DNA from: Acidimicrobiales bacterium
GTDB lineage: Bacteria > Actinomycetota > Acidimicrobiia > Acidimicrobiales > Aldehydirespiratoraceae
DNA: 64,000 bases
NCBI GenBank assembly: GCA_965207755.1
Contig: OZ242297.1
Span: 2,311,406 to 2,375,405 of the forward strand
Reading direction: 5' to 3'
This document shows, piece after piece, positions 4,098 to 44,599 of the stretch; position 1 is the stretch's first letter; every line of letters starts with the position of its first letter. The position numbers and the translations under genes were made by a program. The notes under the pieces were generated by a model that saw only the letters and a list, made by a program, of their open reading frames with translations, had not been told where the DNA came from and ran no database searches.

Positions 4098-4192
4098 GCC
4101 CGCCCTTGTTCGCTTCGCACACAGGCCGCTCGGGCCACCGCCGCGCTCGACGCCCCCCGAGAATCACGAGGCTGGCGCCCGCCCGCCCGGCC

Positions 4193-4447
4193 TCAGTCGA
4201 CGAACTCGACCTCGACGTCGACATCGTCGCGCGATCCGGCGGCGCGCACCAGGGTGCGTATGGCGTGCGCCACCCGGCCCCGCTTGCCTATCACCCTGCC
4301 CATCTCGCCCTGAGCGACACGGACGTCGAGGCGCACCGCGTCGGGGCCGGCCGGGCTGGCGGTTACCTGAACCGCGTCAGTGTCGTCGACGATGCTGGCG
4401 ACGACGTGACGGCACATCGCCTGGGCGGTGGGGGCCAGATCGCTCAT
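4193..4447 (-). CDS. KH-domain RNA-binding protein (UPF0109)
   Basis: 84 aa with the GxxG-type motif GRVIGKRGRVAHAIRTL. Conserved position between rpsP and rimM. Confidence 0.9.
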   Translation of the reverse strand: MSDLAPTAQAMCRHVVASIVDDTDAVQVTASPAGPDAVRLDVRVAQGEMGRVIGKRGRVAHAIRTLVRAAGSRDDVDVEVEFVD

Positions 4448-4755
4448 GAGGCTGAGTCCCCGGTGCCGGCTGCCTCGGGCTCGGCCGCGGCCATTCCCTT
4501 GCCCCGGAAGGTCTCCCAGGCGCCGCTGATCTTCAGCAGCTTCTCCACCCGCTCGGTGGGCTGGGCGCCATGACGCAGCCAGTGCAGGGCGCGGTCGTTG
4601 TCGATCCGCACCACCGACGGGTCCTGGCGGGGCTCGTAGATCCCGATGATCTCGATGAAGCGCCCGTTGCGGGGGGCTCGTGCGTCTGCCGCCACCACGC
4701 GATAGGTGGGCTGCTTCTTCTTCCCCATCCGCATGAGGCGCAACTTGACAGCCAA
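4444..4755 (-). CDS. rpsP: 30S ribosomal protein S16
   Basis: The TTG start at 4755 gives (M)AVKLRLMRMGKKKQPTYRVVAADARAPRNGRFIEIIG. A GAGGAA Shine-Dalgarno lies just upstream. Confidence 0.93.
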   Translation of the reverse strand: MAVKLRLMRMGKKKQPTYRVVAADARAPRNGRFIEIIGIYEPRQDPSVVRIDNDRALHWLRHGAQPTERVEKLLKISGAWETFRGKGMAAAEPEAAGTGDSAS

Positions 4756-4793
4756 TGTGATTCCTCTGATCTCTCGACGTCTCGGGCGTTGGG

Positions 4794-7507: not shown

Positions 7508-7702
7508 CGGCGGTCGATGCTACCCGGGGTCCCGAGGCGGCGGCCGGGCTGGGCAGGGAACCGTGCGGCCTGGACAACGTACGCAGGACCAGGAGGCTGA
7601 GAGGCCGCCGGCCGCGCCGCGACCTGGCCCAAACCCCGGCCCTCGACGGCCGGCCGGCGGTCGCTCACGACGGCTCGCCGCAGAGGACCAGCCCCGGGCG
7701 TG

Positions 7703-9388
7703 TCAGGGGTCTGCTGGGTCTGGGCGTGTCCAGGGGCCTGCGCCGCCTATGTGGGTCACGGTCTCGGCTCGGGGCGGGTCGTATTGGCTGTGGGCGGCCC
7801 AGTGGAAGTCCAGGCCGAAGTCGTGGCGGCGGTTGCCGTCGTCGTCGGTGGCGGGCAGCCCCCGCAGCGGCTGGTCGGGGCCGGCCCGGCGGTCGATGGG
7901 GACCAGCCGATGCACCGCGAGGACCCTGTGGTGCTCGTCGAGGAACGTCAGGTAGGCGCGCACGTCCTCGATGACGAGGTCCTGGAGTGTCTCGGTGTCG
8001 ACGGCGCCGGGATGCGAGGTCGGCGCCGCGAGGTCCACCCGGGTGCTCCACTGGCGGATCGCGGCGTGGTCTCCGGGCCCGAGCGACGGATCCAGGGGCG
8101 CCCAGTTCGCGCCGAAAGCGGGGTCGGCCGCTTGTCGCAGCACCCAGGAGACGCCCCACGGCGACGTGCGTGCCGGGTCGACCGCGAGGCTGGGGTCTCC
8201 GCGGAAGGAGCGGCTCAGGTCCGGCCGCGGCGACATCTCGGCGCTCACCGCGAGCTCGAAGCGCTGCGGCATCTCAGTCACCGCCGCCGCGTCCAGCACG
8301 AACGGCGCCACCTCCCCGGGCTGCAGCGTCAACGCGAACACCGACTCCTGTTCGCCCCACGTCACCGTCACCCGGCGCGCGAACAGCGCCGCGGATCTGT
8401 TCTGCACCAGCCCCAGCAACTCGCCGCCGCGCAACGCAGCGGTGTCCCACAACAGCACCACCTCATCGGCGGGCGCCTCCACCGCGAACACGCCGAGAGG
8501 CGCCCGATAGCCCAGCAGTTCGCCCCCGTAGCCCAGACTGTGGCCGCAGCCGTACAGGCACGCCGTCTCCCGCGCGGTCCGCTGCGCGGCCTCCGTCGCG
8601 GCCTGCGGCGACTCCCTGGGCGGCCCGAACCCGTCCCAGGTCACGTGCGCGTACAGCGGGGCGCCTTCGACGCCGCACCCGGGCCGCAGCTCGAAGACCT
8701 CGCCGAAGATCACGTTGAGGTCGGCCTGTCCGGGGCTGGGACCGACACGCCAGATCTCGTCATAGACCGCCGTCAGGGTGTCGTCGGTGTCGCCGCACAG
8801 CCAGAGGACCTTGCCCAGCAGCGGTTCCCAAGGCGACTGCTGCTCGACGCGCAGCGGGCCCGCGCCCTTCCCGACCACCGCGCCGGGCCGCCCCGGCCGG
8901 GCCACCAGCCCGCCGGGCCGACCCGACCCGTCCGAACCCCCCGACCAGAAGACACCCGCCCCGCCGGGGCCCTCCCGGCCGACATCGACGCTCCCCGCAC
9001 CGTCATCGACGCTCCCCGCACCGTCATCGACCCCGCCGCCGCCGACAGCGACGCTGGAGGAACGGGACCCGTCGAGCGGTCCCTCACCCGAACCCGGCCC
9101 GGGCACATCCCCGGCCGGCACCACCCCGCCGACAGGCACGCCGCCGGGCACAGCGGGCTCGGGCTCGTCCCGCGGACCAGGGAACCATCCGCTGCCGGGC
9201 TCGGCCGCGGCCGGGGCTGCCGGCGGCGTCGCCGCGCCCTGGCCGACAGGCTCGGGCGACGCGCACGACACGGCACCGGCCAGCGCCAGCGCCGCCCCCG
9301 CCGCGCCCCATGGCGCCCGGCGCGCACGGCGGCCGTGTCCCGCAAGCGCGCGACGGCGCGCCGCGGCCGCTCTCAGCGGATGTGGCAT
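7703..9388 (-). CDS. Uncharacterised lipoprotein, family X copy 1 (Cys-rich N-domain plus one LVQN/QPGEVAPF module)
   Basis: The ATG at 9388 gives MPHPLRAAAARRR...AALALAGAVSC, a lipobox. It is paralogous along its whole length to 13170..14978 and shares a module with the 766/768-aa proteins. Its start overlaps the upstream gene's stop by 16 nt. Confidence 0.8.
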   Translation of the reverse strand: MPHPLRAAAARRRALAGHGRRARRAPWGAAGAALALAGAVSCASPEPVGQGAATPPAAPAAAEPGSGWFPGPRDEPEPAVPGGVPVGGVVPAGDVPGPGSGEGPLDGSRSSSVAVGGGGVDDGAGSVDDGAGSVDVGREGPGGAGVFWSGGSDGSGRPGGLVARPGRPGAVVGKGAGPLRVEQQSPWEPLLGKVLWLCGDTDDTLTAVYDEIWRVGPSPGQADLNVIFGEVFELRPGCGVEGAPLYAHVTWDGFGPPRESPQAATEAAQRTARETACLYGCGHSLGYGGELLGYRAPLGVFAVEAPADEVVLLWDTAALRGGELLGLVQNRSAALFARRVTVTWGEQESVFALTLQPGEVAPFVLDAAAVTEMPQRFELAVSAEMSPRPDLSRSFRGDPSLAVDPARTSPWGVSWVLRQAADPAFGANWAPLDPSLGPGDHAAIRQWSTRVDLAAPTSHPGAVDTETLQDLVIEDVRAYLTFLDEHHRVLAVHRLVPIDRRAGPDQPLRGLPATDDDGNRRHDFGLDFHWAAHSQYDPPRAETVTHIGGAGPWTRPDPADP

Positions 9389-9837
9389 GACGGTTTGTGC
9401 TTGTCGAGCGGCCCCCAGCCGCTGCCGCCGGTGTAGGTGCCCTCGTAGGCCTCTGCTGTCAGCGTGATGCCGCTGTAGATGATCCCGACCTGCAGGCATC
9501 TGTTCCTGTAGCGGCGGTTGATCTCATCGGCGTCGGCGCCGCTGGCGGGAGTCTCCTGCTGCCACCGCTCCGCCAGCGTCGTCACCGCCAGGTCAGCGGC
9601 CCTCTGACGGGCATCGCTCGAGCGGACCCTCTCCGCGGCGCCGCCCACCGTGTCGCCCATGAGCACCACCGCAACCGCGGCGATCCCCGCCACCGCGGCC
9701 ACCACCAGCAGCCACTCCAGAGTCGTCAACCCCTCCTCGCGCCCGGGCCGCGCACCGGTCCTGCCGCGCCGGCCGATGCCCGGGCCGCCGCCGACCGGGC
9801 GCAGGCCGCCGCGGCGTCGCCTACCCGGCGCCGTCAT
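9373..9837 (-). CDS. Type-IV/Flp-pilin-like protein, copy 1 (basic leader, G/LTTLEW motif, hydrophobic helix, C-terminal Cys pair)
   Basis: MTAPGRRRRGGLRPVGGGPGIGRRGRTGARPGREEG|LTTLEWLLVVAAVAGIAAVAVVL, with Glu at +5 after the Gly. The start was chosen by alignment with copy 2. Two conserved Cys lie near the C-terminus. Confidence 0.75.
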   Translation of the reverse strand: MTAPGRRRRGGLRPVGGGPGIGRRGRTGARPGREEGLTTLEWLLVVAAVAGIAAVAVVLMGDTVGGAAERVRSSDARQRAADLAVTTLAERWQQETPASGADADEINRRYRNRCLQVGIIYSGITLTAEAYEGTYTGGSGWGPLDKHKPSCHIR

Positions 9838-12121
9838 GCACGCCGCCCACGGTGATGGCGAAGTCGTGGTATTCGTAGTTCGGCAGGAACACCACCAGGA
9901 AGGACGAGTCCAGGCCGATGCGATGCACTTGGACCGGGCCATACGTGCCGTCATCGCGGGTTGTCTCTATGTAGGGGGTCAACTCGCTCACGTCGAGGAC
10001 CCTGTCTTCGTCGTCGAGCCGGGTCAGGTAGACCCGCAGGTCCTCGACCACCAGGTCCGCCACCTCGCCGGCGACGCTGGGATGCGAGGTCGGCTCCTCA
10101 AGCCGGATGAGCGTCTCGTAGGCTTGGACCCAGTCGTCGCGCGACACGCCCTCGGGGCGGACGATGTGGGGGTACCATCCCAGCACGTGCTCGACCTGAC
10201 CCCAGGTGTCGGCCCAGATGCCGGGCAGTCCCGAGACTAGGAACGAACGCCGCAGGTCCGGCTCGGGCGTCAACTGCGCGCTCACCTCCAAGCCGATCGA
10301 CTCAGGGTCTGAGGGCCCCTGATATCCCCCTATCTCGAAGGGCGCCACCTCGCCGGGCTGCACCGTCAACGGGAACACCCACCTGCCTTCGCCCGCAGAC
10401 ACCGTCACATGGCGAGCGAACAGCCTGTCGGACATGTTCTGCACCAGGCCCCTGACCGTCTCGCCGTCCACCAGCACCGAATCCAGCCGCACCGCCACCT
10501 CGTCGCTGAACACGTCTGAGTCGTAGCGGTCAGGCCAGTAGTCCGCGTACCCGAACTCGATGATGCTCCAAGGCTGGGCCTTCCTCAGCGGCCCCGGAAG
10601 ATCAGCAGCCGCGCCGTCGCCGCCGGGCGTCTCAGAGCCCGGCCGCGGACTCCCATCGGGCCCGTCGGCGCCCTCGGCGCCGTCGTGGGCGCCGCCCACG
10701 GTGATGCCGAGGTTGAATCTGCCGTAGGTGCTGCCCGGGGTCGGCAGGAACACCACTAGGCGGTGTCTGTTCTCGCGGTCGGCTCGGCGCGCCGGGACCA
10801 CGCGGCGTCTGCCGTCGTTGCCGGTCACCTGTGCGTAGGGGGTCAACTCGCTCACGTCGAGGACCCTGTCCTCGTCGTCGAGCCGGGTCAGATAGACCCG
10901 CAGGTCCTCGACCACCAGGTCCGCCGCCTCGCCGGCGACGCTGGGATGCGAGGTCGGCTCCTGAAGCGAGACGGACGTCTCGTAGGCGTGGCCCCTGTCG
11001 CCGCGCGACACGCCCTCAGGGCGCACGATGTGGGGGAACCGGCGATACACCTCCTCGATGTGGTCCCAGGTGCCGGCCCAGACGCCGGGCAATCCCGAGA
11101 CCCGGAACGAACGCCGCAGATCCGGCTCAGGCGTCAACTGCGCGCTCACCTCCAAACCGATCGACTCAGGGTCTGCCGGCCCGCGGTAGCCGTCGATCTC
11201 GAAGGGCGCCACCTCGCCGGGCTGCACCGTCAACGGGAACACCCACCTGCCTTCGCCCGCAGACACCGTCACATGGCGAGCGAACAGCCTGTCGGACATG
11301 TTCTGCACCAGGCCCCTGACCGTATCGCCGTCCACCAGCACCGAATCCAGCCGCACCGCCACCTCGTCGCTGAACACTTCTGAGTCGTAGCGGTCAGGCC
11401 AGCCGTCCAAGTACCCCAACTCAAAGAAGGCCCCATTTCCCAGCGCGCGCCTCAGCGGCCCCGGACCATCAGCAACCGCACCGTCGCCGCCCGGCGCCTC
11501 AGAGCCCGGCCGCGAACCCCCATCCGGCGCCTCGGCGCCCGCGCCGGGCTCTCGGGCGCCCCCGACGCCGTCAGGCCCGGCATCACCGGACGGATCCTCC
11601 CCATCAGCCGGGCCGGCAGCATCCCCGGACACCGCGGCCCGCCCCACCGCCACCGCACCAACCCCCCGACCGGGCATCCCGCCAGCGGACCCGTCGCCGG
11701 GCGCGAGCGCCTCCGCGGCGGCGTCACGGACCCCGGCCCCCGCACCGGGCATCCCGCCAGCGGACCCGTCGCCGGCGCCTCCCGCCGCTGCGACCGCACC
11801 CGCAGCATCGCCGGCGTCCCGGCGTGGGTCAGCGATCCCGAAGCCGTCAACGGCACCGGAGCCGGCGTCCTCGAACCACCCGCCGCCGGCGCCGGAGCCC
11901 GTGCCGTCGAACCACTCCGCACCACCGCCGGGCGTGTCAAGCGGATCGCCCGCACCGGACGCGGCGTCGGGCCGCCCGCAGCCCGCCAACAACACAGCCG
12001 CAACCCACCAGACCAGCAGCCGCCTCCGCCCAGTACCGCACCCCCGGCCAAGCACAGCAACGTCGCCCGCCCGCTCGGCCCCATCCGCCCCGACACGCCC
12101 CGCGGGCGTCCGGCCCCGCAT
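9821..12121 (-). CDS. Uncharacterised lipoprotein with two tandem LVQN/QPGEVAPF modules, copy A (766 aa from MRGRTP; alternative ATG at 12145)
   Basis: Signal and lipobox RRRLLVWWVAAVLLAGCG, a Gly/Ala/Asp-rich linker, then two modules of about 270 aa. Near-identical to 15822..18128 except for the last 135 aa or so. Confidence 0.8.
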   Translation of the reverse strand: MRGRTPAGRVGADGAERAGDVAVLGRGCGTGRRRLLVWWVAAVLLAGCGRPDAASGAGDPLDTPGGGAEWFDGTGSGAGGGWFEDAGSGAVDGFGIADPRRDAGDAAGAVAAAGGAGDGSAGGMPGAGAGVRDAAAEALAPGDGSAGGMPGRGVGAVAVGRAAVSGDAAGPADGEDPSGDAGPDGVGGAREPGAGAEAPDGGSRPGSEAPGGDGAVADGPGPLRRALGNGAFFELGYLDGWPDRYDSEVFSDEVAVRLDSVLVDGDTVRGLVQNMSDRLFARHVTVSAGEGRWVFPLTVQPGEVAPFEIDGYRGPADPESIGLEVSAQLTPEPDLRRSFRVSGLPGVWAGTWDHIEEVYRRFPHIVRPEGVSRGDRGHAYETSVSLQEPTSHPSVAGEAADLVVEDLRVYLTRLDDEDRVLDVSELTPYAQVTGNDGRRRVVPARRADRENRHRLVVFLPTPGSTYGRFNLGITVGGAHDGAEGADGPDGSPRPGSETPGGDGAAADLPGPLRKAQPWSIIEFGYADYWPDRYDSDVFSDEVAVRLDSVLVDGETVRGLVQNMSDRLFARHVTVSAGEGRWVFPLTVQPGEVAPFEIGGYQGPSDPESIGLEVSAQLTPEPDLRRSFLVSGLPGIWADTWGQVEHVLGWYPHIVRPEGVSRDDWVQAYETLIRLEEPTSHPSVAGEVADLVVEDLRVYLTRLDDEDRVLDVSELTPYIETTRDDGTYGPVQVHRIGLDSSFLVVFLPNYEYHDFAITVGGVHDGAG

Positions 12122-12123
12122 CG

Positions 12124-12479
12124 TCACACTCGGTGCCAGCTGCATGTCCCCTGTGTGGGGCAGTGCTTGATGTAGAGGACCCTGGTACCCACAGCATTCA
12201 CGAACCCTTCACCGAGAACCCTCCGGGCAGCGCACGTCGGCCGCCGCGGACCCCGCACCGAGACGCCGCAGCCGCTCCGGCGCGCCCTCCAGCCCAGGAA
12301 ACCCCACCAGACCGAACACCGCCGCCGACACCGCCGGCAGCCACAACAGACCCGGACGCGCCCGACCTGTCCGCCGGACCGCCCCGCATCTGCACGGCGA
12401 CCGTCGCTGCACCCCCAAAACTGTACACAACCCTCACCGGCCGCCACAGCCGCCCACCCCGGACACGCCGGCTGCCATG
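12124..12479 (-). pseudogene. Deletion derivative of the leader-ORF plus 884-aa gene: 73-aa leader ORF copy (12209..12430) joined to the last 27 codons or so of the large gene
   Basis: The DNA about 12205-12479 matches about 20775-21055. The 12124-12210 segment encodes ...FVNAVGTRVLYIKHCPTQGTCSWHRV, identical to the C-terminus of the 18131..20785 protein. The roughly 2.5 kb in between is absent. Confidence 0.75.
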
Positions 12480-12486
12480 CGCCCGG

Positions 12487-12862
12487 GCCGGACCGGCCAC
12501 GACCGACGCCACCAAGCCCCGGTCCGTGCCCGACTGGTCGACCACCCGGGCGCCGATCAGCTCGTGGACCCACAGCTCATCGGGGTCCGCGATCGGCGCG
12601 GCCCGCAGCACCAGCCCCCTCAGAGCCTCGGCCTGGATGCGGTCGCCGATGCCGGCGAAGGCCACCAGGTGGCGCTTGTTGTGGGGTCGGGCCGAGGAGA
12701 CCTGCAGGGTCCCCGAGTCGGTCCGCAGCTCCGATCCGGGCGCCAGGCGCTCGGGCCGGTTCGACACCAGAGTGACGGTCACCTCGCCGCCGGTGCCGTG
12801 GGGCCGCCCGACGCGGCCGACCTCCAGCAGCGGCGCCGTCCCGGCGCCGGACGAGTCGGCCT
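12487..12862 (-). pseudogene. Partial copy of rimM (roughly residues 5-128), lacking its own start and the C-terminal PRC-barrel end
   Basis: The DNA aligns base for base with 3709-4083, with scattered substitutions. It encodes DSSGAGTAPLLEVGRVGRPHGTGGEVTVTLVSNRPERLAPGSELRTD...IADPDELWVHELIGARVVDQSGTDRGLV. Confidence 0.85.
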
Positions 12863-12882
12863 GTTCAGTCACGCAGCCCGGA

Positions 12883-13137
12883 AGGCGCCCGATAGCCCAA
12901 CTCCTCGCCGCCGAAGCCGAGACTGTGGCCACAGCCGTACAGACACCCCGCCTGCTGCGCCGCGTCGGTCGCCTCCTCCGGCGACGCCCTCGCCGAGCCG
13001 AACCCGTCCCAGGTCACGTGCGCGTACAGCGCAGCGCCCTCGCGGCCACGCTCGGGCCGGATCTCGAACAGCTCGCCGAAGATCACATTGATGTCGGCCT
13101 GCCCAGGGCTGGGACCCACACGAACCGTCTCATTCCA
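12883..13137 (-). pseudogene. Fragment of a family-X lipoprotein gene (part of the Cys-rich N-domain only)
   Basis: Encodes VRVGPSPGQADINVIFGELFEIRP...LYAHVTWDGFGSARASPEEATDAAQQAGCLYGCGHSLGFGGEELGYRAP, matching the interior of 7703..9388 (DNA about 8490-8760). It has no signal peptide and no module. Confidence 0.8.
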
Positions 13138-13169
13138 GGCGCGCATGAGCGGACGGGTGCCTGTGTGCG

Positions 13170-14978
13170 TCACGGGCCCGCCGCGTCTGCGCGTGTCCAC
13201 GGGCCTGCGCCGCCTATGTGCAGCACGGCCTCGACTTCGATCGGGTCGTATTCGCTGTCGGCGGCCCAGTAGAACTCCAGACCGAAGTCGTAGATCAACT
13301 CGCCCATGCCGTTGTACTGGAGGTTGCCGTCTTCGTCGCGCACAGGCAGCCCCCTCAGCGGCTCGTCAGGGTCGGCCCAGCCGTTCTCGGGGACCAGCCG
13401 ATGCACCGCGAACACTCTGCCGTGCCCGTCGAGGAACGTCAGATAGGCGCGCATTTCCTCAACGACCAGATCCTCCAACCCGGCCACCACATCGGGATGC
13501 GACTCCGGCGCCACCAACTCCACAGAGATGTTCCACTCGCGCATATTGACCTCATCGCCGGGTCCCAGCGACGGATCCAGAGGCGCCCAGTTCGCGCCGA
13601 AGTCCGGGTCCGCCATCTGCTGCTGCACCCAGCCGACGTCCCAATACGACGAATGCAGCGCACCGAACGGGAAATCGGCGAAGAACGAGCGGCTCAGGTC
13701 AGGCTGCGGCGACAGCGCCGCGCTCACCTCGACCTCAGACGGCTCCGGCAGCACAGAGGACCCGGCGGCGTCCAGCACGAACGGCGCCACCTCCCCGGGC
13801 TGCAACGTCAACGCGAACACCGACTCCCGCCCGCCCCACCTCACCGTCACCTCACGCGCGAACAACTCCGCGGACATGTTCTGCACCAGCCCCAGCATCT
13901 CGCCGCCGCGCAGCGCCACCGAATCCCACAACAGCACCACCTCATCGACAGGCGCCTCCACCGCGAACGCCCCATAGGGCGCCTCATAGCCCAACAACTG
14001 GCCGCCGTAGCCGAGATTGTGGCCACAGCCATACAGGCACGCCCCCTCCTGCACCGCCTCCGTCGCCTCCTCGGGCGACCCCCTCGCCGGCCCGAACCCG
14101 CGCCAAGTCAAATGCACATACAACCGGCCGCGGTCGCCGCCGCACTCACCGTCTTGGAAATCGGCGATCTTCAGGCCCATCAGATACAGATCAGACGACG
14201 GCGGATCGGCGACACGCACCACCTTCTCGAACATCGCCGCCACCGCGTCGGCGTCACAAACCTCCAAGACATCGCCCATAACCGCATCCCAAGGTAGATA
14301 CCCCCAGGGCTCGTCGCTGCGAAGCGGACCCTGACCATTCGCAACCACCGCCCCGCGCTGGTGCGGCCGGCCAACCAACTCGCCAGGCTCACGGAACCCG
14401 CCCGAACCCCCCGACCCAGACACCGAAACCTCCTCCGAAACACCCACCCCGCCGCCATCAACAACAGCCCCGACATCATCAACGGCCCCGCCATCGACGG
14501 ATCCGCCATCATCAACGGCCCCATCACCGGCCCCGCCATCATCAACAACCCGTCCGCCGTCAGCGACACCGCCGCCAACAGCATCACCGCCGCCGCCGTC
14601 AACGACCACGACACTGGAAGGCATGCGCTCGTCGGACAGGCCCCCACCAGCACCCGTATCCGACACATCCCCAGCCGACACCGCCCCGCCGCCGGCTCCT
14701 GCAGCGGCATCGGCTGCGGGCCCATGCCCGTGCCCCGGATCAGAGAACGAGCGACCGTCGACTGCCTCACCGCCGCCGGGCTCGGCTGCGGGCTCAGAGA
14801 TGTGCCCCCGATCAGAGAACCAGCCGCCGACACGCTCGTCCACGGCCGGGGGCGCCGCCTCGCCTCCGCCGTCAGGCTCAGACGGCGCGCACGACACGGC
14901 CCCGACCAGCGCCGCCAACACCAACCCCGCGCCGCCCAGGACCCGAAGCCGGCCATCCTTCACCGTCGAAGCTCGCAT
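13170..14978 (-). CDS. Uncharacterised lipoprotein, family X copy 2
   Basis: The ATG at 14978 gives MRASTVKDGRLRVLGGAGLVLAALVGAVSC, a lipobox. It has a Gly/Asp/Val low-complexity linker, a CLYGCGHNLGYGG N-domain and one LVQN/QPGEVAPF module. It ends HIGGAGPWTRADAAGP, like copy 1. Confidence 0.8.
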   Translation of the reverse strand: MRASTVKDGRLRVLGGAGLVLAALVGAVSCAPSEPDGGGEAAPPAVDERVGGWFSDRGHISEPAAEPGGGEAVDGRSFSDPGHGHGPAADAAAGAGGGAVSAGDVSDTGAGGGLSDERMPSSVVVVDGGGGDAVGGGVADGGRVVDDGGAGDGAVDDGGSVDGGAVDDVGAVVDGGGVGVSEEVSVSGSGGSGGFREPGELVGRPHQRGAVVANGQGPLRSDEPWGYLPWDAVMGDVLEVCDADAVAAMFEKVVRVADPPSSDLYLMGLKIADFQDGECGGDRGRLYVHLTWRGFGPARGSPEEATEAVQEGACLYGCGHNLGYGGQLLGYEAPYGAFAVEAPVDEVVLLWDSVALRGGEMLGLVQNMSAELFAREVTVRWGGRESVFALTLQPGEVAPFVLDAAGSSVLPEPSEVEVSAALSPQPDLSRSFFADFPFGALHSSYWDVGWVQQQMADPDFGANWAPLDPSLGPGDEVNMREWNISVELVAPESHPDVVAGLEDLVVEEMRAYLTFLDGHGRVFAVHRLVPENGWADPDEPLRGLPVRDEDGNLQYNGMGELIYDFGLEFYWAADSEYDPIEVEAVLHIGGAGPWTRADAAGP

Positions 14979-15374
14979 CACGACAGCAGCGAGCCGACGG
15001 CCGGGTCGATCCACTCGCAGGCCGCCGCAGTCGCGGCCACAGCCGCGCCGCATTCCTCGTTGTCGCCCGCCCTCACATAGAGCACCCTTCCGTCCACGTT
15101 GCCGACGTACCAGCCGTTGCCGTGCGGTCCCAGCCTCGACGCTCGCGCGTACTGGTCGTCTGGGACGGCCTTGATCAGCGTGTGGGCGTAGCCGGTGTGC
15201 GCCTTGGGGAACACCGCGTACTTGGTGCCTTCGTGCGCGATCTTGTCCGGGTTGGTCAACGAGACGAACGCGACCTGTCCTCTTGGCGAACCTGTAGACG
15301 CTGCCCGCGGGGTTGCACGACCCGCCGTAGACGCGCAGCCCGCCGTCGCCGCACGCCTCGACCGGCGCCGTCAT
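14978..15374 (-). pseudogene. Stand-alone paralog of the C-terminal domain of the 884-aa protein; apparently split by a 1-nt frame change
   Basis: The ATG at 15374 (ATGA overlap with the pilin-like stop) gives MTAPVEACGDGGLRVYGGSCNPAGSVYRFAKRTG. Homology then continues in the next frame: VAFVSLTNPDKIAHEGTKYAVFPKAHTGYAHTLIKAVP...GWYVGNVDGRVLYVRAG. Compare ...GGATVYHPDG...LGFVSFTDTDGTKYAAFP...GWFVNAVGTRVLYIKHC in the large protein. Confidence 0.6.
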
Positions 15375-15838
15375 CGGATCGCGAGAATGCTGCACAGCGG
15401 CGTGTTGTGCCAGCCGGTCGGCCGGTCGGGGTCATAGATGCCTTCGACGATGTCGGTTCCCGCCAAAACGTCGGCGTAGATGATCTCCAGTCGCCGGCAC
15501 CGCCGCCGGTAGCGGGCGTTGATCTGGTCGGCGTCGCTCTGTGTGGAGGGCCGCTGCTGCTGCCAGGCGTCCTCGAGCTCGGTGGCCGCGAGGTCCGCGG
15601 CCTCCTGACGCGCGCTGTGGGATCCGACCTGCTCGGCCGTGCCGCCGACCACGCTCTGCACCAGCACCACGCCCAGCGCGGCCAGCCCCGCCACCGCGGC
15701 CACCACCAGCAGCCACTCCAGAGTCGTCAACCCCTCATCGCGCCCGGGCCGCGCACCGGTCCTGCCGCGCCGGCCGGTGCCCGGGCCACCGCCGACCGGG
15801 CGCAGGCCACCACGGCGTCGCCTACCCGGCGCCGTCAT
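15371..15838 (-). CDS. Type-IV/Flp-pilin-like protein, copy 2
   Basis: MTAPGRRRRGGLRPVGGGPGTGRRGRTGARPGRDEG|LTTLEWLLVVAAVAGLAALGVVL. The first 50 aa or so are nearly identical to copy 1 and the mature part is divergent. The Cys pair is conserved. Confidence 0.78.
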   Translation of the reverse strand: MTAPGRRRRGGLRPVGGGPGTGRRGRTGARPGRDEGLTTLEWLLVVAAVAGLAALGVVLVQSVVGGTAEQVGSHSARQEAADLAATELEDAWQQQRPSTQSDADQINARYRRRCRRLEIIYADVLAGTDIVEGIYDPDRPTGWHNTPLCSILAIR

Positions 15839-18128
15839 GCACGCCGCCCACGGTGATGGCGAAGTCGTAGTCGTCGTAGTTCAGCAGAAACACCACCAGG
15901 AAGTACCTGTTCTCGCGGTCGATTCGGCGCACCTGGATCGGGCCGTAGGTCCCGTCGTCGCGGGTTGTCTCCTTGTAGGGGGTCAGCTCGCTCACATCGA
16001 CGATGCGGTCGGCGTCGTCGAGCCGGGTCAGGTACACCCGCAGGTCCTCGACCACGAAGTCCGCCGCCTCGCCGACGACGCTGGGATGCGAGGTCGGCTC
16101 CTCCTCAAACTCGATGAACGTCTGGTAGACGTAGGCCAACTCGTCGCGCGACACGCCCTCGGGGCGGACGATGTGGGGGTACCATCCCAGCACGTGCTCG
16201 ACCTGATCCCAGGTGTCGGCCCAGAACCCCGGACTGTTCTCGACCCAGAACGAACGCCGCAGGTCCGGCTCGGGCGTCAGCTGCGCGCTCACCTCCAAGC
16301 CGATCGACTCAGGGTCTGAGGGCCCCTGATATCCCCCTATCTCGAAGGGCGCCACCTCGCCGGGCTGCACCGTCAACGGGAACACCCACCTGCCTTCGCC
16401 CGCAGACACCGTCACATGGCGAGCGAACAGCCTGTCGGACATGTTCTGCACCAGGCCCCTGACCGTATCGCCGTCCACCAGCACCGAATCCAGCCGCACC
16501 GCCACCTCGTCGCTGAACACGTCTGAGTCGTAGCGGTCAGGCCAGTGGTCCGAGTACCCGAACTCGATGATGCTCCAAGGCTGGGCCTTCCTCAGCGGCC
16601 CCGGAAGATCAGCAGCCGCACCGTCGCCGCCGGGCGTCTCAGAGCCCGGCCGCGGACTCCCATCGGGCCCGTCGGCGCCCTCGGCGCCGTCGTGGGCGCC
16701 GCCCACGGTGATGCCGAGGTTGAATCTGCCGTAGGTGCTGCCCGGGGTCGGCAGGAACACCACTAGGCGGTGTCTGTTCTCGCGGTCGGCTCGGCGCGCC
16801 GGGACCACGCGGCGTCTGCCGTCGTTGCCGGTCACCTGTGCGTAGGGGGTCAACTCGCTCACGTCGAGGACCCTGTCCTCGTCGTCGAGCCGGGTCAGAT
16901 AGACCCGCAGGTCCTCGACCACCAGGTCCGCCGCCTCGCCGGCGACGCTGGGATGCGAGGTCGGCTCCTGAAGCGAGACGGACGTCTCGTAGGCGTGGCC
17001 CCTGTCGCCGCGCGACACGCCCTCAGGGCGCACGATGTGGGGGAACCGGCGATACACCTCCTCGATGTGGTCCCAGGTGCCGGCCCAGACGCCGGGCAAT
17101 CCCGAGACCCGGAACGAACGCCGCAGATCCGGCTCAGGCGTCAACTGCGCGCTCACCTCCAAACCGATCGACTCAGGGTCTGACGGCCCCTGATATCCCC
17201 CTATCTCGAAGGGCGCCACCTCGCCGGGCTGCACCGTCAACGGGAACACCCACCTGCCTTCGCCCGCAGACACCGTCACATGGCGAGCGAACAGCCTGTC
17301 GGACATGTTCTGCACCAGGCCCCTGACCGTATCGCCGTCCACCAGCACCGAATCCAGCCGCACCGCCACCTCGTCGCTGAACACTTCTGAGTCGTAGCGG
17401 TCAGGCCAGCCGTCCAAGTACCCCAACTCAAAGAAGGCCCCATTTCCCAGCGCGCGCCTCAGCGGCCCCGGACCATCAGCAACCGCACCGTCGCCGCCCG
17501 GCGCCTCAGAGCCCGGCCGCGAACCCCCATCCGGCGCCTCGGCGCCCGCGCCGGGCTCTCGGGCGCCCCCGACGCCGTCAGGCCCGGCATCACCGGACGG
17601 ATCCTCCCCATCAGCCGGGCCGGCAGCATCCCCGGACACCGCGGCCCGCCCCACCGCCACCGCACCAACCCCCCGACCGGGCATCCCGCCAGCGGACCCG
17701 TCGCCGGGCGCGAGCGCCTCCGCGGCGGCGTCACGGACCCCGGCCCCCGCACCGGGCATCCCGCCAGCGGACCCGTCGCCGGCGCCTCCCGCCGCTGCGA
17801 CCGCACCCGCAGCATCGCCGGCGTCCCGGCGTGGGTCAGCGATCCCGAAGCCGTCAACGGCACCGGAGCCGGCGTCCTCGAACCACCCGCCGCCGGAGCC
17901 GGAGCCCGTGCCGTCGAACCACTCCGCACCACCGCCGGGCGTGTCGGGCGTGTCGCCCGCACCGGACGCGGCGTCGGGCCGCCCGCAGCCCGCCAACAAC
18001 ACAGCCGCAACCCACCAGACCAGCAGCCGCCTCCGCCCAGTACCGCACCCCCGGCCAAGCACAGCAACGTCGCCCGCCCGCTCGGCCCCATCCGCCCCGA
18101 CACGCCCCGCGGGCGTCCGGCCCCGCAT
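15822..18128 (-). CDS. Uncharacterised lipoprotein with two tandem LVQN/QPGEVAPF modules, copy B (768 aa; alternative ATG at 18152)
   Basis: Same architecture as 9821..12121. The ATG at 18128 lies 2 nt after the stop of the 884-aa gene. Confidence 0.8.
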   Translation of the reverse strand: MRGRTPAGRVGADGAERAGDVAVLGRGCGTGRRRLLVWWVAAVLLAGCGRPDAASGAGDTPDTPGGGAEWFDGTGSGSGGGWFEDAGSGAVDGFGIADPRRDAGDAAGAVAAAGGAGDGSAGGMPGAGAGVRDAAAEALAPGDGSAGGMPGRGVGAVAVGRAAVSGDAAGPADGEDPSGDAGPDGVGGAREPGAGAEAPDGGSRPGSEAPGGDGAVADGPGPLRRALGNGAFFELGYLDGWPDRYDSEVFSDEVAVRLDSVLVDGDTVRGLVQNMSDRLFARHVTVSAGEGRWVFPLTVQPGEVAPFEIGGYQGPSDPESIGLEVSAQLTPEPDLRRSFRVSGLPGVWAGTWDHIEEVYRRFPHIVRPEGVSRGDRGHAYETSVSLQEPTSHPSVAGEAADLVVEDLRVYLTRLDDEDRVLDVSELTPYAQVTGNDGRRRVVPARRADRENRHRLVVFLPTPGSTYGRFNLGITVGGAHDGAEGADGPDGSPRPGSETPGGDGAAADLPGPLRKAQPWSIIEFGYSDHWPDRYDSDVFSDEVAVRLDSVLVDGDTVRGLVQNMSDRLFARHVTVSAGEGRWVFPLTVQPGEVAPFEIGGYQGPSDPESIGLEVSAQLTPEPDLRRSFWVENSPGFWADTWDQVEHVLGWYPHIVRPEGVSRDELAYVYQTFIEFEEEPTSHPSVVGEAADFVVEDLRVYLTRLDDADRIVDVSELTPYKETTRDDGTYGPIQVRRIDRENRYFLVVFLLNYDDYDFAITVGGVHDGAG

Positions 18129-18130
18129 CG

Positions 18131-20785
18131 TCACACTCGGTGCCAGCTGCATGTCCCCTGTGTGGGGCAGTGCTTGATGTAGAGGACCCTGGTACCCACA
18201 GCATTCACGAACCAGCCGTAACCATCACCGACACCAGCGCCCACTTCGCGGGCGTACTTGTTCTTGGGGACGCCCCTGATGAGGGTCTCGGCGTAGCCGG
18301 TGCCGGTGCCGGCCTCGCCGATGTCGTTGGCCGGGAACGCCGCGTACTTGGTGCCGTCGGTGTCGGTGAAGGACACGAACCCCAACGGCAGCGGGGTTAT
18401 GTCATACCAGATCTCGAAAGTTCCGCAGCCGGCGTCCTTGCAGTGCTTCCTGGTCCTGCCGTCGGGGTGATAGACCGTCGCGCCGCCCTCGGCGTTGGCG
18501 ATGTCATACCAGTGGCAGTCGAAGGGCTCGCCGCCGGTGCCCCACCGGCAGCGGCGATCCTGCACCCCTCCGTCGGGATCTGAGCCCGCCACCCGGCGGA
18601 CCCTCAACGCGTCGTTGGCGTCGTCATAGATGGTCTCAGCTATAGGGATGCAGTGATTGATGTCGGGATCCTCCCCGAACCGCTTCTGCGCCTTGCACGC
18701 AAGCCAGGTCTCAAGCTGTTTCTTGAGTTTCTCCTCGCTCGCGCAGAGCCCGCCGAAGAGGTGCTTCGCGACCTCGACGGCGGCGTGGTTGACGTTGGCC
18801 CGTTTGGCGTGGTGCCACTCCTTGACCGGCTCCCACAAGTCGAGTTGCCACGGGCCCACGCCGGGGCTCCAGTGCGCGCGCGGCTCGCCGGTCTGGGTGC
18901 CCTTGGAGAACAGGCCGGTGCTCTCATCGTTGGTGAACAGCGAATCCCACCGCGACAGGTCCATCAGCGACGGGTTGTCCTTGTGGAGTTCGCGGATCGG
19001 TATGGCCAGCACGTACGCGGCCAACTCGTTGGCGGTGACCGGATCGCTGTCTCGTGTGACGCACTCCCTGCCGGCGTTGCCGTCGATCACCCGGCGAGCC
19101 GCGGACATGACCCCGTCGATGATCGCGGCGCCGTACCGGTAGGCCGCGGTGCGGCACCGCTGGTCGGCGGGGTTCCTGAACAGCGGAGAAGCGCACACGC
19201 GGGGCCGGCAGCCGTCGTCGGAGCCCCTGGCGAACGCCGACATGTAGGTCTGATCAGACGGGCACACGTTCACCGCGGACACCGAGAGGGTGAACCCGCC
19301 CGGGTTCCGGTCGGCGCGTCTGGCTACCTCGACGGTGTAGCGGCCCACCATCCCCTCGGGGTTGAGCAGCGCGCTGACGGTCGCGGCGCGGGCTTCGCCG
19401 CCGGGGCTGGAGGCCGTGTGCAGCGGCTTGGCGCTGCCGGCGTCGCCGTCATGCACATACACATCGATGGCATGGTCAGAAACCGCCACGACGGTGACCG
19501 TCGCCGCCTCCGCCAGCGTGAGCGTGTAGCGCTTGGCGTAGTAAGGGGTCTGGTCGCCGTGCTGCGACGACTTGCACGACGACACCCACACGTTGCCCAC
19601 CCGGGCCCCGCCGAGGGTGATCCGCAACTCGCAGACAACCGGCGACACCACGGTGAAGACCGCCGTCTTGCGGGCGGCGGCGTAGCCGTCGCTAAAGCAC
19701 CTGACCGTGACCTGCACTTCGCCCACCGCCGATCCGGTGTCCAACCTCACGCTGCGCTGCGTGCCGTCGTCGTCGGGGATCGGCAGCGGCGCCGACAGCG
19801 GGCCCGACCCCTGCCACGCATAACAGTTCGCGTCGCCTGGAACCACACCGAAGTCCGCATCGATCGGCGACACGTCCGAGACGTCCCCCAAGCCGGTGAT
19901 CGCGACCCTGGCGGGTGTGGCGGGCTCAGGCTCGTCTGAGTCCGTGTCAGGCTCGTCTGAGTCCGTGTCAGGCTCGTCTGAGTCCGTGTCAGGCTCGTCT
20001 GAGTCCGTGTCAGGCTCGTCTGAGTCCGTGTCAGGCTCGTCTGAGTCCGTGTCAGGCTCAGGCGTGTCAGGCTCGGGCTCGTCTGAGTCCGTGTCAGGCT
20101 CGTCTGAGTCCGTGTCAGGCTCAGGCGTGTCAGGCTCGGGCTCGTCTGAGTCCGTGTCAGGCTCAGGCGTGTCAGGCTCGGGCTCGTCTGAGTCTGTGTC
20201 GGGCTCAGGCAGGGTCGTCGTGGTGGTGGTACTCGTCGTTGTTGTGCTCGTCGTGGTGGTCGTGGTGGTGGTGCTGGTCGTTGTTGTGGTCGTGGTGGTC
20301 GTGCTGGTACTGGTCGTGGTGGTGGGGTGGGTGTGGGGCACTGGGTCCGCGGTCACGTAGCGGTAGCAGGAGATGGCGCGCCCGTAGGCCTCCTGGGTGT
20401 AGCCGCCGGGGCAGCGCATCGACGTGCGCGTCGACCACGCGTCCACCGTCTTGTAGCAGCCAGCCCCGATCCTGCGATACCCCGCCGAGCACACATAGCG
20501 GGTCTCAGTCACGGTGCGGGTGCGGCCCCTCACCCAGCACCCCGTGCCCGAAGTCGCCGACGTGCTGCAATAGCGCGTGCCCCTGATCCCGCGCCAGTAG
20601 CCCTGACGCACGCACCCCGCCCGCGTCGCCATGTCGACACACACCGTCTTCGTCGTCGTCCTCGCAGTGGCGTCCACCCGCACGCTGCGGGTACACGACG
20701 GACCGCTCCGCACCCCGAGACAGACCCTCACCGTCGTCACCACCACCGGCGCGTACTCGCGTTTGCGGCAGCCCGAACCCTTCAC
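18131..20785 (-). CDS. 884-aa multidomain protein: Cys-rich repeats, poly-Thr/Ser linker, DTDSDEP acidic heptad repeats, a PPC-like beta domain (tentative), a possible lysozyme-like region (tentative) and a conserved C-terminal domain
   Basis: Long ORF with coding-type repeats and visibly lower GC than its neighbours. The GTG start overlaps the stop of the 72-aa leader ORF (GTGA). No signal peptide at the annotated start. Confidence 0.75.
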   Translation of the reverse strand: MKGSGCRKREYAPVVVTTVRVCLGVRSGPSCTRSVRVDATARTTTKTVCVDMATRAGCVRQGYWRGIRGTRYCSTSATSGTGCWVRGRTRTVTETRYVCSAGYRRIGAGCYKTVDAWSTRTSMRCPGGYTQEAYGRAISCYRYVTADPVPHTHPTTTTSTSTTTTTTTTTSTTTTTTTTSTTTTSTTTTTTLPEPDTDSDEPEPDTPEPDTDSDEPEPDTPEPDTDSDEPDTDSDEPEPDTPEPDTDSDEPDTDSDEPDTDSDEPDTDSDEPDTDSDEPDTDSDEPEPATPARVAITGLGDVSDVSPIDADFGVVPGDANCYAWQGSGPLSAPLPIPDDDGTQRSVRLDTGSAVGEVQVTVRCFSDGYAAARKTAVFTVVSPVVCELRITLGGARVGNVWVSSCKSSQHGDQTPYYAKRYTLTLAEAATVTVVAVSDHAIDVYVHDGDAGSAKPLHTASSPGGEARAATVSALLNPEGMVGRYTVEVARRADRNPGGFTLSVSAVNVCPSDQTYMSAFARGSDDGCRPRVCASPLFRNPADQRCRTAAYRYGAAIIDGVMSAARRVIDGNAGRECVTRDSDPVTANELAAYVLAIPIRELHKDNPSLMDLSRWDSLFTNDESTGLFSKGTQTGEPRAHWSPGVGPWQLDLWEPVKEWHHAKRANVNHAAVEVAKHLFGGLCASEEKLKKQLETWLACKAQKRFGEDPDINHCIPIAETIYDDANDALRVRRVAGSDPDGGVQDRRCRWGTGGEPFDCHWYDIANAEGGATVYHPDGRTRKHCKDAGCGTFEIWYDITPLPLGFVSFTDTDGTKYAAFPANDIGEAGTGTGYAETLIRGVPKNKYAREVGAGVGDGYGWFVNAVGTRVLYIKHCPTQGTCSWHRV
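19915..20210. repeat. Coding tandem repeat (21-nt unit GGCTCGTCTGAGTCCGTGTCA and longer variants) encoding DTDSDEP / PEPDTPEP; followed by a poly-Thr-encoding tract at about 20215-20335
   Basis: Read directly in the DNA. The units are contiguous with no spacers, and they lie in frame inside 18131..20785. Confidence 0.9.
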
Positions 20786-21000
20786 CGAGAACCCTCCGGG
20801 CAGCGCACATCGGCCGCCGCTGACCCCGCACCGAGACGCCGCAGCCGCTCAGGCGCGCCCTCCAGCCCAGGAAACCCCACCAGACCGAACACCGCCACCG
20901 ACACCGCCAGCAGCCACAACAGACCCCGACGCGCCCAGCCCCGCCGGGCCGCCCCGCCTCCGCACGGCGACCGTCGCTGCACCCCCAAAACTGTACACAA
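20782..21000 (-). CDS. 72-aa leader ORF with a signal-peptide-like hydrophobic segment (may be the detached N-terminus of the 884-aa protein)
   Basis: ...RRGWARRGLLWLLAVSVAVFGLVGFPG... The same ORF is conserved in the remnant at 12209..12430. Its stop overlaps the downstream GTG. Confidence 0.5.
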   Translation of the reverse strand: MCTVLGVQRRSPCGGGAARRGWARRGLLWLLAVSVAVFGLVGFPGLEGAPERLRRLGAGSAAADVRCPEGSR

Positions 21001-21089
21001 CCCTCACCGGCCGCCACAGCCGCCCACCCCCGACACACCGGCTGCCATGCGCCCGGCCGCCGCACGGCCGTCGTGCAGGCGGCCGCCGG

Positions 21090-22481
21090 TCAGCCCAGAG
21101 CGTCCAGAACCGCGGTGGCCACGAAGAGGTCGCCGCCCCGCTTGATCGTCAGCTCGACGGGCTCGCCCGGCCTGCGCAGCTTGATCGCGGCCGAGAGCTC
21201 CGTGATGTCGTGCATCGGCTCGCCGCCGAGGCTGACGATCACGTCGCCGGCCTCCAGCCCGGCCTCCGCGGCCGGGGATCCGGGCAGGACTTCGGCCACC
21301 AACACCCCCACGTCGTCGCCCTCGGACGCCTGGCCGCTGATGCCGAGATACCCGAGTTCCAGCGACTCCCCGTTGATGATGCGGGTGGCGATCAAGTCGA
21401 CGGTGTCGCTGGGGACAGCGAAGCCCAGACCGATGCTGCCGCCCGTGGTGGTCTGGATCATGGTGTTCATCCCGATGACCCGGCCCTGCCAGTCGGCCAG
21501 CGCCCCGCCGGAGTTGCCCCGGTTGATGGCGGCGTCGGTCTGGATCATCTCCACCGGCACCGGCGAGCTCGGGTCGGCGCCGCCCTGGACCTGGATCCTG
21601 ACCGCGCTCACGATCCCCGCGGTGACCGTGCCGGTAAGGCCGAGCGGACTGCCGATGGCCACCGCCAGCTGACCCACCCTCACCGACGAGACCGGCGCGA
21701 AGGTGGCGGCCACCAATCCAGCGGCCCCCGGATCGACCCGCACCACCGCCACGTCGTGCCCGGACGACCCGCCGACGACCTCGCCGTCGAGACGGGTGCC
21801 GTCCGACAAGTGGACGGTCACGCTCTCGGCGCCCTCCACGACATGCTGGTTGGTGACGATGTAGCCGTCGTCGGCGTCCCAGACGATGCCGGAGCCCAGA
21901 CCGAAACCGATCTGGGCATCGACCTCGACGAGCACCACCGACGGGCTCAGCGCCTCGGCCACGGCCACCACCGGCTCATCGGAGACGGCCGGCGCCGGAT
22001 ACTCCGAAGCCGCGGCCGGGTCCCCGGCCGCCGCAGCCGAAGCCGCCCGCCCGTCAGGGGCCGAGCCCTCGACGGCGGGCTGTTCCGCGACCGGGGATCC
22101 TCCGGCGCCGAGCAGCCCGGCGGCCGGCGGCTCGCCCGCGGCCCCCTCGGCGGCTGCGGCGGATTGGGATCCGGTCACCGCCGCGACCTCCTCGGGAGAG
22201 GCCGGCCGCAGCGACGGGGACGCCCCGCCGTCCTGCGAGCCACCGAGGAGCGCCGCCGCGACGGCGACCGCCGCGACGGCGGCGAGACACGCCGACAACA
22301 GCGCCGCGGCGAGCACCCTGGCGGGCCGCCGGGGCGCGGGCGGCGGGGCGGCGGCAGCCTCGGGCGGACGCAACACCGCCGTCCGGGCCGGCCGGGGGCC
22401 GGCGCGGCCCGCCGCTCCGGCCGCGGCGGCCTGCGGCGGCCGCACCACCGCGGTGCGGCTGCGAGGGTCCGGATCCTGCAT
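21090..22481 (-). CDS. htrA: HtrA/DegP-family serine protease with N-terminal membrane anchor and C-terminal PDZ domain
   Basis: The ATG at 22481 gives MQDPDPRS... Features: TM segment LAAALLSACLAAVAAVAVAAALL, GSGIVWDADDGYIVTNQHVV (His), HDVAVVRV (Asp), TDAAINRGNSGGAL (Ser), and a PDZ domain GVLVAEVLPGSPAAEAGLEAGDVIVSLGG. Confidence 0.92.
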   Translation of the reverse strand: MQDPDPRSRTAVVRPPQAAAAGAAGRAGPRPARTAVLRPPEAAAAPPPAPRRPARVLAAALLSACLAAVAAVAVAAALLGGSQDGGASPSLRPASPEEVAAVTGSQSAAAAEGAAGEPPAAGLLGAGGSPVAEQPAVEGSAPDGRAASAAAAGDPAAASEYPAPAVSDEPVVAVAEALSPSVVLVEVDAQIGFGLGSGIVWDADDGYIVTNQHVVEGAESVTVHLSDGTRLDGEVVGGSSGHDVAVVRVDPGAAGLVAATFAPVSSVRVGQLAVAIGSPLGLTGTVTAGIVSAVRIQVQGGADPSSPVPVEMIQTDAAINRGNSGGALADWQGRVIGMNTMIQTTTGGSIGLGFAVPSDTVDLIATRIINGESLELGYLGISGQASEGDDVGVLVAEVLPGSPAAEAGLEAGDVIVSLGGEPMHDITELSAAIKLRRPGEPVELTIKRGGDLFVATAVLDALG

Positions 22482-22666
22482 CTCGCCATAGAAGCTAGAC
22501 CGAGCCGGTGAGAGATCGGTAAACCCGGCCCCGGCGACACCCCGGACAGCGACGAGGAGGCGGACCGGGCTGCGACTCGCTCGGCGGGTTTTCGTCCACG
22601 AGCGGTTCGAGCCGGAAGCGGTGCTCGGGAAACTCGCCCGAGGCTCGGGTTGCGCCGCGATCCGAC

Positions 22667-44594: not shown

Positions 44595-44599
44595 CGGGT

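Follow-up and report, generated by a model that had tools for sequence, protein, structure and literature searches.

In a 64,000-nucleotide (nt) stretch of contig OZ242297.1 of a sponge-associated Acidimicrobiales bacterium (referred to as the window; assembly GCA_965207755.1, positions 2,311,406 to 2,375,405), two overlapping open reading frames (ORFs) of 72 and 884 codons lie on the minus strand. Very likely, both derive from one ancestral gene of about 956 codons, which was split in two by the loss of a single G. The split is no slip of the assembly but a real allele, whose presence varies between samples or strains, and the intact state is the ancestral one.

The 884-codon ORF (18131-20785) opens with a GTG at 20785 and closes with a stop codon at 18131-18133. 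The 72-codon ORF (20782-21000) starts with a TTG at 21000 and ends at a premature TGA at 20782-20784. They overlap in the sequence GTGA, with the large ORF read in the -1 frame with respect to the small ORF. In the window sequence the leader frame ends with ...RCPEGSR-stop, and the other frame reads VKGSGCRKREY. The original prediction, made from the sequence of the stretch, had noted that the large protein has no export signal and that a signal-like segment sits in the separate overlapping ORF upstream. Hydropathy is in agreement with both observations: the best Kyte-Doolittle average over 15 residues reaches 2.67 in the 72-amino-acid (aa) ORF, at LLWLLAVSVAVFGLV, and only 1.61 across residues 1-100 of the 884-aa ORF. 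The small ORF encodes the stretch RRGWARRG and then the hydrophobic LLWLLAVSVAVFGLVGF, that is, a positive n-region and an h-region as in a Sec-type signal peptide or signal anchor. Behind this h-region no clear A-x-A for cleavage by signal peptidase is seen by eye, and the conserved G-L-x-G-F-P that follows it may point to an uncleaved anchor. The internal GTG that opens the 884-codon ORF is a Val codon, with GGAGG located 7 nt upstream. As this GGAGG derives from Pro-Glu-Gly codons, a signal-less product could be initiated here, while nothing suggests design. The GTGA shared by both ORFs, we infer, simply results from the Ser-Val-Lys codons and is no designed coupling site.

In several relatives, both parts are encoded by a single ORF. 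The orthologue in a genome of the same genus (G008) comprises 1183 aa and starts with MMSRLGRVRALLWGLAVSVVVYGLAGF...AAADVRCPAGFSPSGSGCRKKQY. In tblastn, its residues 9-53 align to window positions 20928-20791 in the leader frame, ending with CPAG in the orthologue and CPEG in the window, and from PAGFSPSGSGC/PGGFSVKGSGC onward the alignment is in the -1 frame. This change pins the frame switch to the GGG run at 20792-20794. A true orthologue was found in just one of the 30 relatives searched, and any match in 12 of 31 genomes (G000 included). The in-genome paralogue L002 is likewise a single ORF, whose signal peptide continues in frame into ...ECPDGYSAGGGGCRKRSF. Ten residues separate the two Cys in its Cys-x10-Cys motif, which is cut by the ORF junction in the window gene; the latter has an equal spacing only if one base is added to the G run. 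A homologous leader (…YGLVGFP…) is in frame in P0007 (945 aa), P0010 (1014 aa), L021 and L024, and a hydrophobic N-terminus (best 15-residue Kyte-Doolittle average of at least 2.1) is present in 25 of the 50 related ORFs. Orthologues that uniformly consist of two separate genes, which would have spoken for a split design, were thus not encountered: G008, L002, P0007, P0010, L021 and L024 all have one ORF.

To follow the site in the population, contigs from public metagenome runs were compared over 20330-21400. One contig of run X1 (record 3, 864 nt, depth 86) carries an extra C behind 20791, which gives GGGG on the coding strand and fuses the frames. This allele reads ...CPEGFSVKGSGC... in frame, matching CPDGYS of the paralogue; over 20686-21400 the contig has three substitutions relative to the window, plus a 3-nt indel. 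The GGG allele is found in X18 (record 4, 639 nt, 0 differences from the window) and in X3, a run from another study (record 12, 281 nt, depth 3, two substitutions, 20605-20885). The stretch is present in sponge-metagenome runs of two studies, besides its possible source. An indel that fuses both ORFs, as had been considered, therefore exists in the form of the extra base in X1, but the GGG in X18 and X3 shows that it is no simple sequencing error. Taken together, the single-ORF relatives, the frame switch and the intact allele describe an ordinary gene for a secreted protein with a genuine frameshift allele.

In a further contig of X1 (record 2), position 20653 is fused to the acidic repeat in the wrong frame, and the Thr run and what would remain of the Cys module past this point are missing. 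P0001, a 99%-identical protein from a metagenome-assembled genome (MAG), starts in the out-of-frame reading of this allele. The species of the window carries a second, different lesion in this X1 contig and in P0001.

The product of the ancestral gene was most probably a multi-domain protein of the envelope, either exported or anchored in the membrane, as suggested by its predicted parts: a signal or signal anchor would have been followed by a Cys-rich module, Thr-rich and acidic linkers, immunoglobulin (Ig)-like and PPC-like beta domains, and a C-terminal domain of ~345 aa. One G would have been lost from a GGGG run located 27 codons past the hydrophobic segment. Translation of the leader would then halt at the TGA after 72 codons, with the remaining gene in the -1 frame, and a product initiated at the internal GTG would have no export signal and remain in the cytoplasm. 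We infer that the GGG allele is a young pseudogene, either null or crippled. As the gene is broken by the lost G, the missing export signal reflects an ordinary lesion and no new export route. Of the puzzle initially seen in the separate export signal, its position in the upstream ORF was upheld, as was the view that the split did not arise from a single mistake in assembly. The gene represents neither a two-gene design nor an alternative route.

The gene is not the only one of its family that is broken. By comparing the ORFs of the family loci with intact relatives, we found at least 10 of 39 family genes to be disrupted (the 38 loci paired with a lipoprotein gene, see below, and the window). 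Next to the leader, L018 has an in-frame TAG 8 codons past the GFP motif, L035 a frameshift immediately past the leader and a second one within the C-terminal domain, L040 a frameshift about 10 codons past the AQS of the signal, and L065 a frameshift about 45 codons past the hydrophobic segment; in these four loci and in the window the leader is uncoupled from the body of the protein. L027 has lost about 400 codons out of frame beside the leader. TAG codons are found at codon 241 in L025 (nt 975) and at codon 399 in L041 (nt 5768), a frameshift near residue 400 in L037, and a 5' truncation in L022. L035, L040 and L041 come from records titled as chromosomes, whereas L025, L027, L037 and L065 are short-read MAGs, so that some of the lesions may be assembly errors. 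The count leaves out nine ORFs without a hydrophobic N-terminus (L026, L031, L044, L049, L053, L054, L055, L058 and L067); L036, L039, L059 and L064 lie at contig ends, and in L023 and L034 the signals are weaker, though plausible. L030 was dropped as a split gene, as its frame change crosses a run of N. In the disrupted loci the adjoining lipoprotein ORFs are still long. Judged from the sequences, the family genes have been inactivated independently, since the lesions vary in type and site, as expected of independent mutations. The single in-frame stop is TAG each time in L018 (about 5085-5165), L025 and L041, which is expected from high-GC codon usage.

Three other explanations were weighed against the loss of a G from one gene. 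If the organism truly had GGGG, the GGG of the window would be a consensus error in sequencing or assembly, for which the homopolymer at the site and the extra base in the X1 contig might speak. We consider this improbable: GGG recurs in X18 and in X3 from the other study, as well as in the paralogous remnant copy in the window, a run of three versus four bases is short for a systematic error, and the X1 contig comes from another strain, with three other differing positions and the 3-nt indel. Programmed recoding, by a -1 frameshift or by GTGA-coupled reinitiation, would yield some full-length protein or two products; the GGAGG before the GTG and the overlap of stop and start would suit it, as would the relatives in which the leader is also cut off (L018 by the in-frame TAG; L035, L040 and L065 by frameshifts). 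Yet CCG GAG GGT TCT CGG TGA contains no X XXY YYZ heptamer, and the 111 nt from the site show no stable structure (minimum free energy -45.1 versus a shuffle mean of -45.8, z = 0.19). The two-frame layout is not conserved either, as the orthologue, the paralogue and the X1 allele each read through in one frame, and the lesions of the relatives differ in kind and position. Recoding is hence a very unlikely cause. It is hardly credible that two genuine genes are present, one for a 72-aa membrane peptide and one for a signal-less 884-aa protein that is cytoplasmic or exported otherwise. Both ORFs are open, the large one over 884 codons without a stop, but chance alone keeps long ORFs open at 71% GC and a GC content at third codon positions (GC3) of 0.87. 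The junction cuts a Cys motif that is kept in the orthologue and the paralogue, the 29 Cys and the mucin-like linker are typical of extracytoplasmic proteins, and none of the relatives seen has a two-gene layout at this place. A protein search with the 72-aa ORF among longer proteins gave 0 of 1748 candidates at E ≤ 0.01, which is weak evidence.

Some observations count against a simple allele that arose by random loss of the G. X18 may be the source sample of the window and hence no independent evidence, which leaves the single 281-nt contig of X3, at depth 3, as independent support for GGG; rare variants are lost in contigs, so these give no allele frequencies. GGG is common to two copies in the window that are ~93-96% identical, yet the full-copy allele of X1, which is 99.4% identical, has GGGG, so that gene conversion, recurrent loss of the G or reversion is required. 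Finally, five lesions of the family lie within about 60 codons past the leader, and more than random decay is possible. From the positions, this clustering looks like it exceeds a uniform spread, and the low-complexity G/C-rich sequence past the leader may simply be more mutable. With one ancestral gene broken by a lost G as the preferred reading, both ORFs should be annotated as one frameshifted gene (pseudogene or null allele) and not as a small membrane protein and a signal-less giant, and no unusual export route is required. The coordinates of the gene and of the features discussed below are listed in the table.

Features of the split gene and its surroundings in the window (positions relative to the first nucleotide of the window).
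Feature	Position	Strand	Basis
5' part of the gene: charged stretch, 17-residue hydrophobic segment, G-L-x-G-F-P, half of the first Cys motif	20782..21000	-	In-frame homology to orthologue residues 9-53 and to the N-termini of P0007 and L021
GGG run (CCC on + strand), site of 1-nt deletion, GGGG to GGG	20792..20794	-	Frame switch against orthologue; X1 contig
Remainder of the gene, 884-codon ORF from internal GTG	18131..20785	-	Single-ORF relatives
Cys-rich N-terminal module, residues 1-150, repeated C-x2-G-aromatic...C motifs	20336..20785	-	70% identity to orthologue, 56% to in-genome paralogue
Low-complexity linkers: Thr/Ser run (20213-20323) and acidic repeat (19926-20206)	19926..20323	-	Repeat analysis
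Middle region, residues about 292-510: Ig-like-looking segment, then PPC-like beta domain	19256..19912	-	Homologues
Conserved C-terminal domain, residues 540-884: helical lobe about 18599-19153, beta-rich lobe about 18134-18598	18134..19168	-	119 homologues, AlphaFold 2 model
776-aa lipoprotein-like gene, LLAGC lipobox at residue 52, two units of about 250 aa	15822..18152	-	Sequence; adjacency in relatives
155-aa protein, Flp-pilin-like N-terminus, weak DUF4244 match	15371..15838	-	Pfam; recurs near the pair in relatives
Remnant copy: duplicated leader with GGG frameshift and last about 26 codons of the large gene	12124..12498	-	Sequence matches
Second, older remnant of the end of the C-terminal domain, upstream of a 741-aa lipoprotein paralogue	14978..15259	-	54% identity to residues 802-872
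Another three lipoprotein paralogues (7703-9499, 9821-12145, 13170-15395), segmental duplication	7703..15395	-	Sequence matches

The 884-aa protein is built like an exported protein, as had been proposed, with its richness in Cys (29 in all, 11 of them within the first 150 residues) and its mucin-like linker. Where three Cys mini-repeats had been described, the strict pattern occurs twice (residues 99 and 125); the third, CVRQGYWRGIRGTRYC, is looser, and a fourth straddles the ORF junction. The Thr/Ser run, estimated at about 40 residues, measures 37 (residues 155-191). The acidic repeat has a period of 21 nt and 13.4 copies, close to the expected 14, with 10 DTDSDEP and 3 EPDTPEP units. A Pfam scan of the protein gave no family at E ≤ 0.1, PPC and SLT (PF01464) included, and there was no meaningful Pfam or NCBIfam family match. 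The suggested PPC-like segment finds its counterpart in the homologues, where PPC (PF04151) matches 2 of 37 family members with a best E of 1.5e-7, but not in the window protein itself, which has no Pfam match. In P0010, PPC scores 20.9 bits, under the cut-off of 25.9, at a stretch homologous to window residues about 415-480. The lower GC content of the gene compared to its backbone is real and modest (67.6% versus 71.1% for the window). At 0.87 its GC3 is as in the neighbouring genes, for which reason a foreign origin inferred from the low GC was rejected. The deficit lies in the first codon positions (GC1 of 0.60), which fits the composition of a protein rich in Thr (12.3%) and Asp (9.4%).

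A search of 1.84 billion representatives gave 119 relatives of the 345-aa C-terminal domain at E ≤ 0.001. Some of these stand alone (about 310-350 aa), others form the C-terminus of larger proteins. Invariant in the family are Glu 599 (domain position 60, in IRELHK), the motif GVGxWQLD, and several Cys and Trp. The AlphaFold 2 model of the domain, with a predicted local distance difference test (pLDDT) of 92.8 and a predicted template modelling score of 0.90, has two lobes, of which domain residues 10-180 form the helical one and 190-345 the beta one.

The original prediction had seen a faint resemblance to lytic transglycosylases or lysozymes in this region. With Foldseek, the domain model gave nothing at E ≤ 0.001 in PDB or BFVD; among the non-significant rows are a few SLT, LT_GEWL and tail-lysozyme entries. 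In the wide structural search with VIA, 14 of the 16 top matches of the helical lobe are lysozyme-like, with Z values of 4.5-5.6, all of them under the caution line of 8 given for the tool. These matches include MltF (5aa1; Z 5.6, root mean square deviation 4.0, 125 residues aligned), DslA (5.5), MltC (5.4), a GH23-type muramidase and Slt (5.2 each), g-type lysozyme (4.7), lambda lysozyme (4.6) and Slt70 (4.5); in the structural searches, the GH23 chitinase 3w6e scored 5.1 and MltE 5.0/4.8. A second structural look at 996 chains gave lysozyme-like proteins as all of the top 7 (Z 4.5-5.1), with the next match at 3.2. The best score in the ESM Atlas, 0.85, is under the line of 0.9, and one cluster with 11% SLT has 0.83; both serve as leads only. 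With the family profile, 0 matches were found at E ≤ 1 in a PDB sequence search, and no Pfam family covers the domain in 37 family members. The helical lobe is probably lysozyme-like, based on the structural neighbours of the predicted model. These lend weak support to the initial resemblance, while the E-S first pointed to, in NDEST (residue 619), is not conserved in the family, the invariant Glu being 599. As no hidden Markov model matches and this Glu lies outside an E-S motif, the domain was not filed in GH23/SLT. A separate Pfam search for SLT (PF01464) matched 0 of 13 genomes of the genus, compared to 8 of 14 well-known genomes as a control.

The remnant at 12124-12498 preserves the split, as stated at the outset: 12201-12498 is 93% identical to 20774-21069 over 300 nt (96% in ungapped blocks), with an equal GGG and stop. 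At a GGTTCG microhomology the duplicated leader runs directly into the final 26 or so codons of the large gene, which here are in a third frame, and a 774-aa lipoprotein paralogue follows downstream. The remnant is part of a 2.7-kb duplication (9475-12206 versus 15476-18213, 94%). Directly upstream of its leader, 389 nt from the 5' part of rimM are duplicated (12486-12874 versus 3711-4099, 92%). The complete rimM is located in an rpsP-KH-rimM-(trmD)-rplS cluster at about 2400-4800; a housekeeping fragment was thus carried into the rearranged array. The region 7700-21070, between a signal recognition particle GTPase gene (6428-7507) and protease/SMC genes, is a patchwork of segmental duplications, in which 7702-8956 and 13169-14424 share 72% identity and the lipoprotein genes contain internal repeats of 864 nt.

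Directly downstream of the split gene, and overlapping the end of its 884-codon ORF by 22 nt, lies a lipoprotein-like ORF (15822-18152). Of 50 related loci, 38 have a homologue of its unit next to the domain gene. This homologue follows immediately on the same strand in 30 of them (gap -187 to +41 nt), immediately precedes the domain gene in 4, and is within ~0.7 kb or otherwise displaced in the other 4. Those 12 loci that lack it belong to the remotest relatives or are located at contig ends. By their record titles, the relatives are sponge-associated Acidimicrobiia (Candidatus Aldehydirespirator, Poriferisocius, Poriferisodalis), with one Pirellulaceae MAG. The model of the lipoprotein unit (pLDDT 88.6) shows two beta-sandwiches, for which the structure searches returned only generic beta-sandwich matches (Foldseek TM ≤ 0.22 for the whole model, VIA Z ≤ 4.2). 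In this genome, the only full gene for the C-terminal domain is the broken one, and all six lipoprotein units, in four genes, lie inside the array in the window. A complex prediction of the C-terminal domain with two lipoprotein units had a score of 0.00 (mark 0.32), which counts neither way on binding. Small proteins with a Flp-pilin-like N-terminus (…GLTTLEWLLVVAAVAG…) and a C-terminal extension of ~100 aa are encoded at 15371-15838 and 9373-9954; their Pfam match to DUF4244 is weak (E 3e-4, under the cut-off). Such a protein occurs near the pair in six distinct loci (L017/L019, which are one locus, L018, L020, L021, L054 and L065).

The tight linkage conserved in these 38 of 50 loci is what would be expected of an effector-immunity pair. 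One tentative and rather doubtful reading is an undescribed two-gene module, widespread and present in multiple copies in sponge-associated Acidimicrobiia, in which a secreted enzyme with a divergent lysozyme-like domain would be accompanied by a lipoprotein as inhibitor or immunity partner. The enzyme would have been knocked out repeatedly and independently, often through separation of the signal peptide from the body, with the lipoproteins kept and amplified. A cell-wall hydrolase restrained by a lipoprotein, if true, would bear on competition between symbionts or on envelope remodelling in the host, and strain-level on/off alleles would give population studies a starting point. In kind, the split is ordinary; the linked gene pair and the repeated decay appear mildly interesting, with a hypothetical function. 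Newly defined are the C-terminal domain, which has 119 relatives and neither a Pfam nor a PDB sequence match, and its linked lipoprotein in sponge symbionts. In the accessible part of the literature on Aldehydirespirator or on pseudogenes of sponge-symbiont Acidimicrobiia, no description of the domain or the lipoprotein family was found; the accessible text of PMC11706023 on Aldehydirespirator treats taxonomy and mentions neither lysozyme, lipoprotein nor pseudogene.

Two other places in the window deserve a remark. A 1066-codon ORF (21090-24290) with a C-terminal trypsin-like protease and a PDZ domain overlaps the SMC gene (22667-26158) by ~1.6 kb; the long N-terminal portion is likely spurious, an open frame due to high GC, and the true start probably lies near 22.6 kb. 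An ORF of 1887 codons at 44170-49833 (+) covers the part of the window with the lowest GC (63-68% at 46-49 kb) and several short ORFs on the opposite strand.

Compared to known systems, the split resembles the homopolymer frameshift null alleles of secreted proteins, in which a G is lost, the signal remains on a short upstream ORF, the downstream ORF is open, and an intact allele exists in the population. Different from these, the same lesion is also found here in a diverged remnant, and about a quarter of the family is disrupted independently. Phase-variable contingency genes are similar in that their on and off alleles differ by one homopolymer base just past the signal peptide. Reversible slippage tracts have about 7 or more units, however, and the run here has 3 or 4 bases; moreover, the lesions of the relatives include irreversible nonsense codons and deletions. 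With GGG in the window and GGGG in X1, the site lacks the long tract of phase variation by simple sequence repeats.

The helical lobe has its best structural neighbours among the GH23/SLT lytic transglycosylases and goose-type lysozymes. The family also has one invariant Glu and a G-x-G-x-W-Q-L-D that recalls the GLMQ motif of lytic transglycosylases. In SLT domains the catalytic Glu is part of an E-S motif and is separated from the Gly-rich motif by fewer than 43 residues. In the family described here, by contrast, the Glu is followed by Leu instead of Ser and lies 43 residues ahead of the Gly-rich motif. Further differences are the additional beta lobe of ~155 residues behind the helical lobe, the lack of a Pfam SLT or PDB sequence match in the family, and Z values below 8 throughout.

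As for the pair, MliC, PliG and Tse3-Tsi3 are inhibitor or immunity systems of lysozymes and muramidases, and Tse3-Tsi3 (4luq) and PliG (4g9s) are among the entries of the structural search with the helical lobe. The pair resembles such enzyme-inhibitor systems in the tight linkage of a lysozyme-like domain gene to a lipoprotein gene (38 of 50 loci), and in the presence of six lipoprotein units for one broken enzyme gene. It differs in the lipoproteins, which are large (400-950 aa), form generic beta-sandwiches and match no known inhibitor. Polymorphic toxins have a conserved N-terminus and a variable C-terminus, whereas here the C-terminus is conserved and the N-terminus variable. Under the tentative reading as a module, the array in the window, with four lipoprotein genes and their six units beside effector remnants, would resemble the orphan-immunity arrays of interbacterial antagonism.

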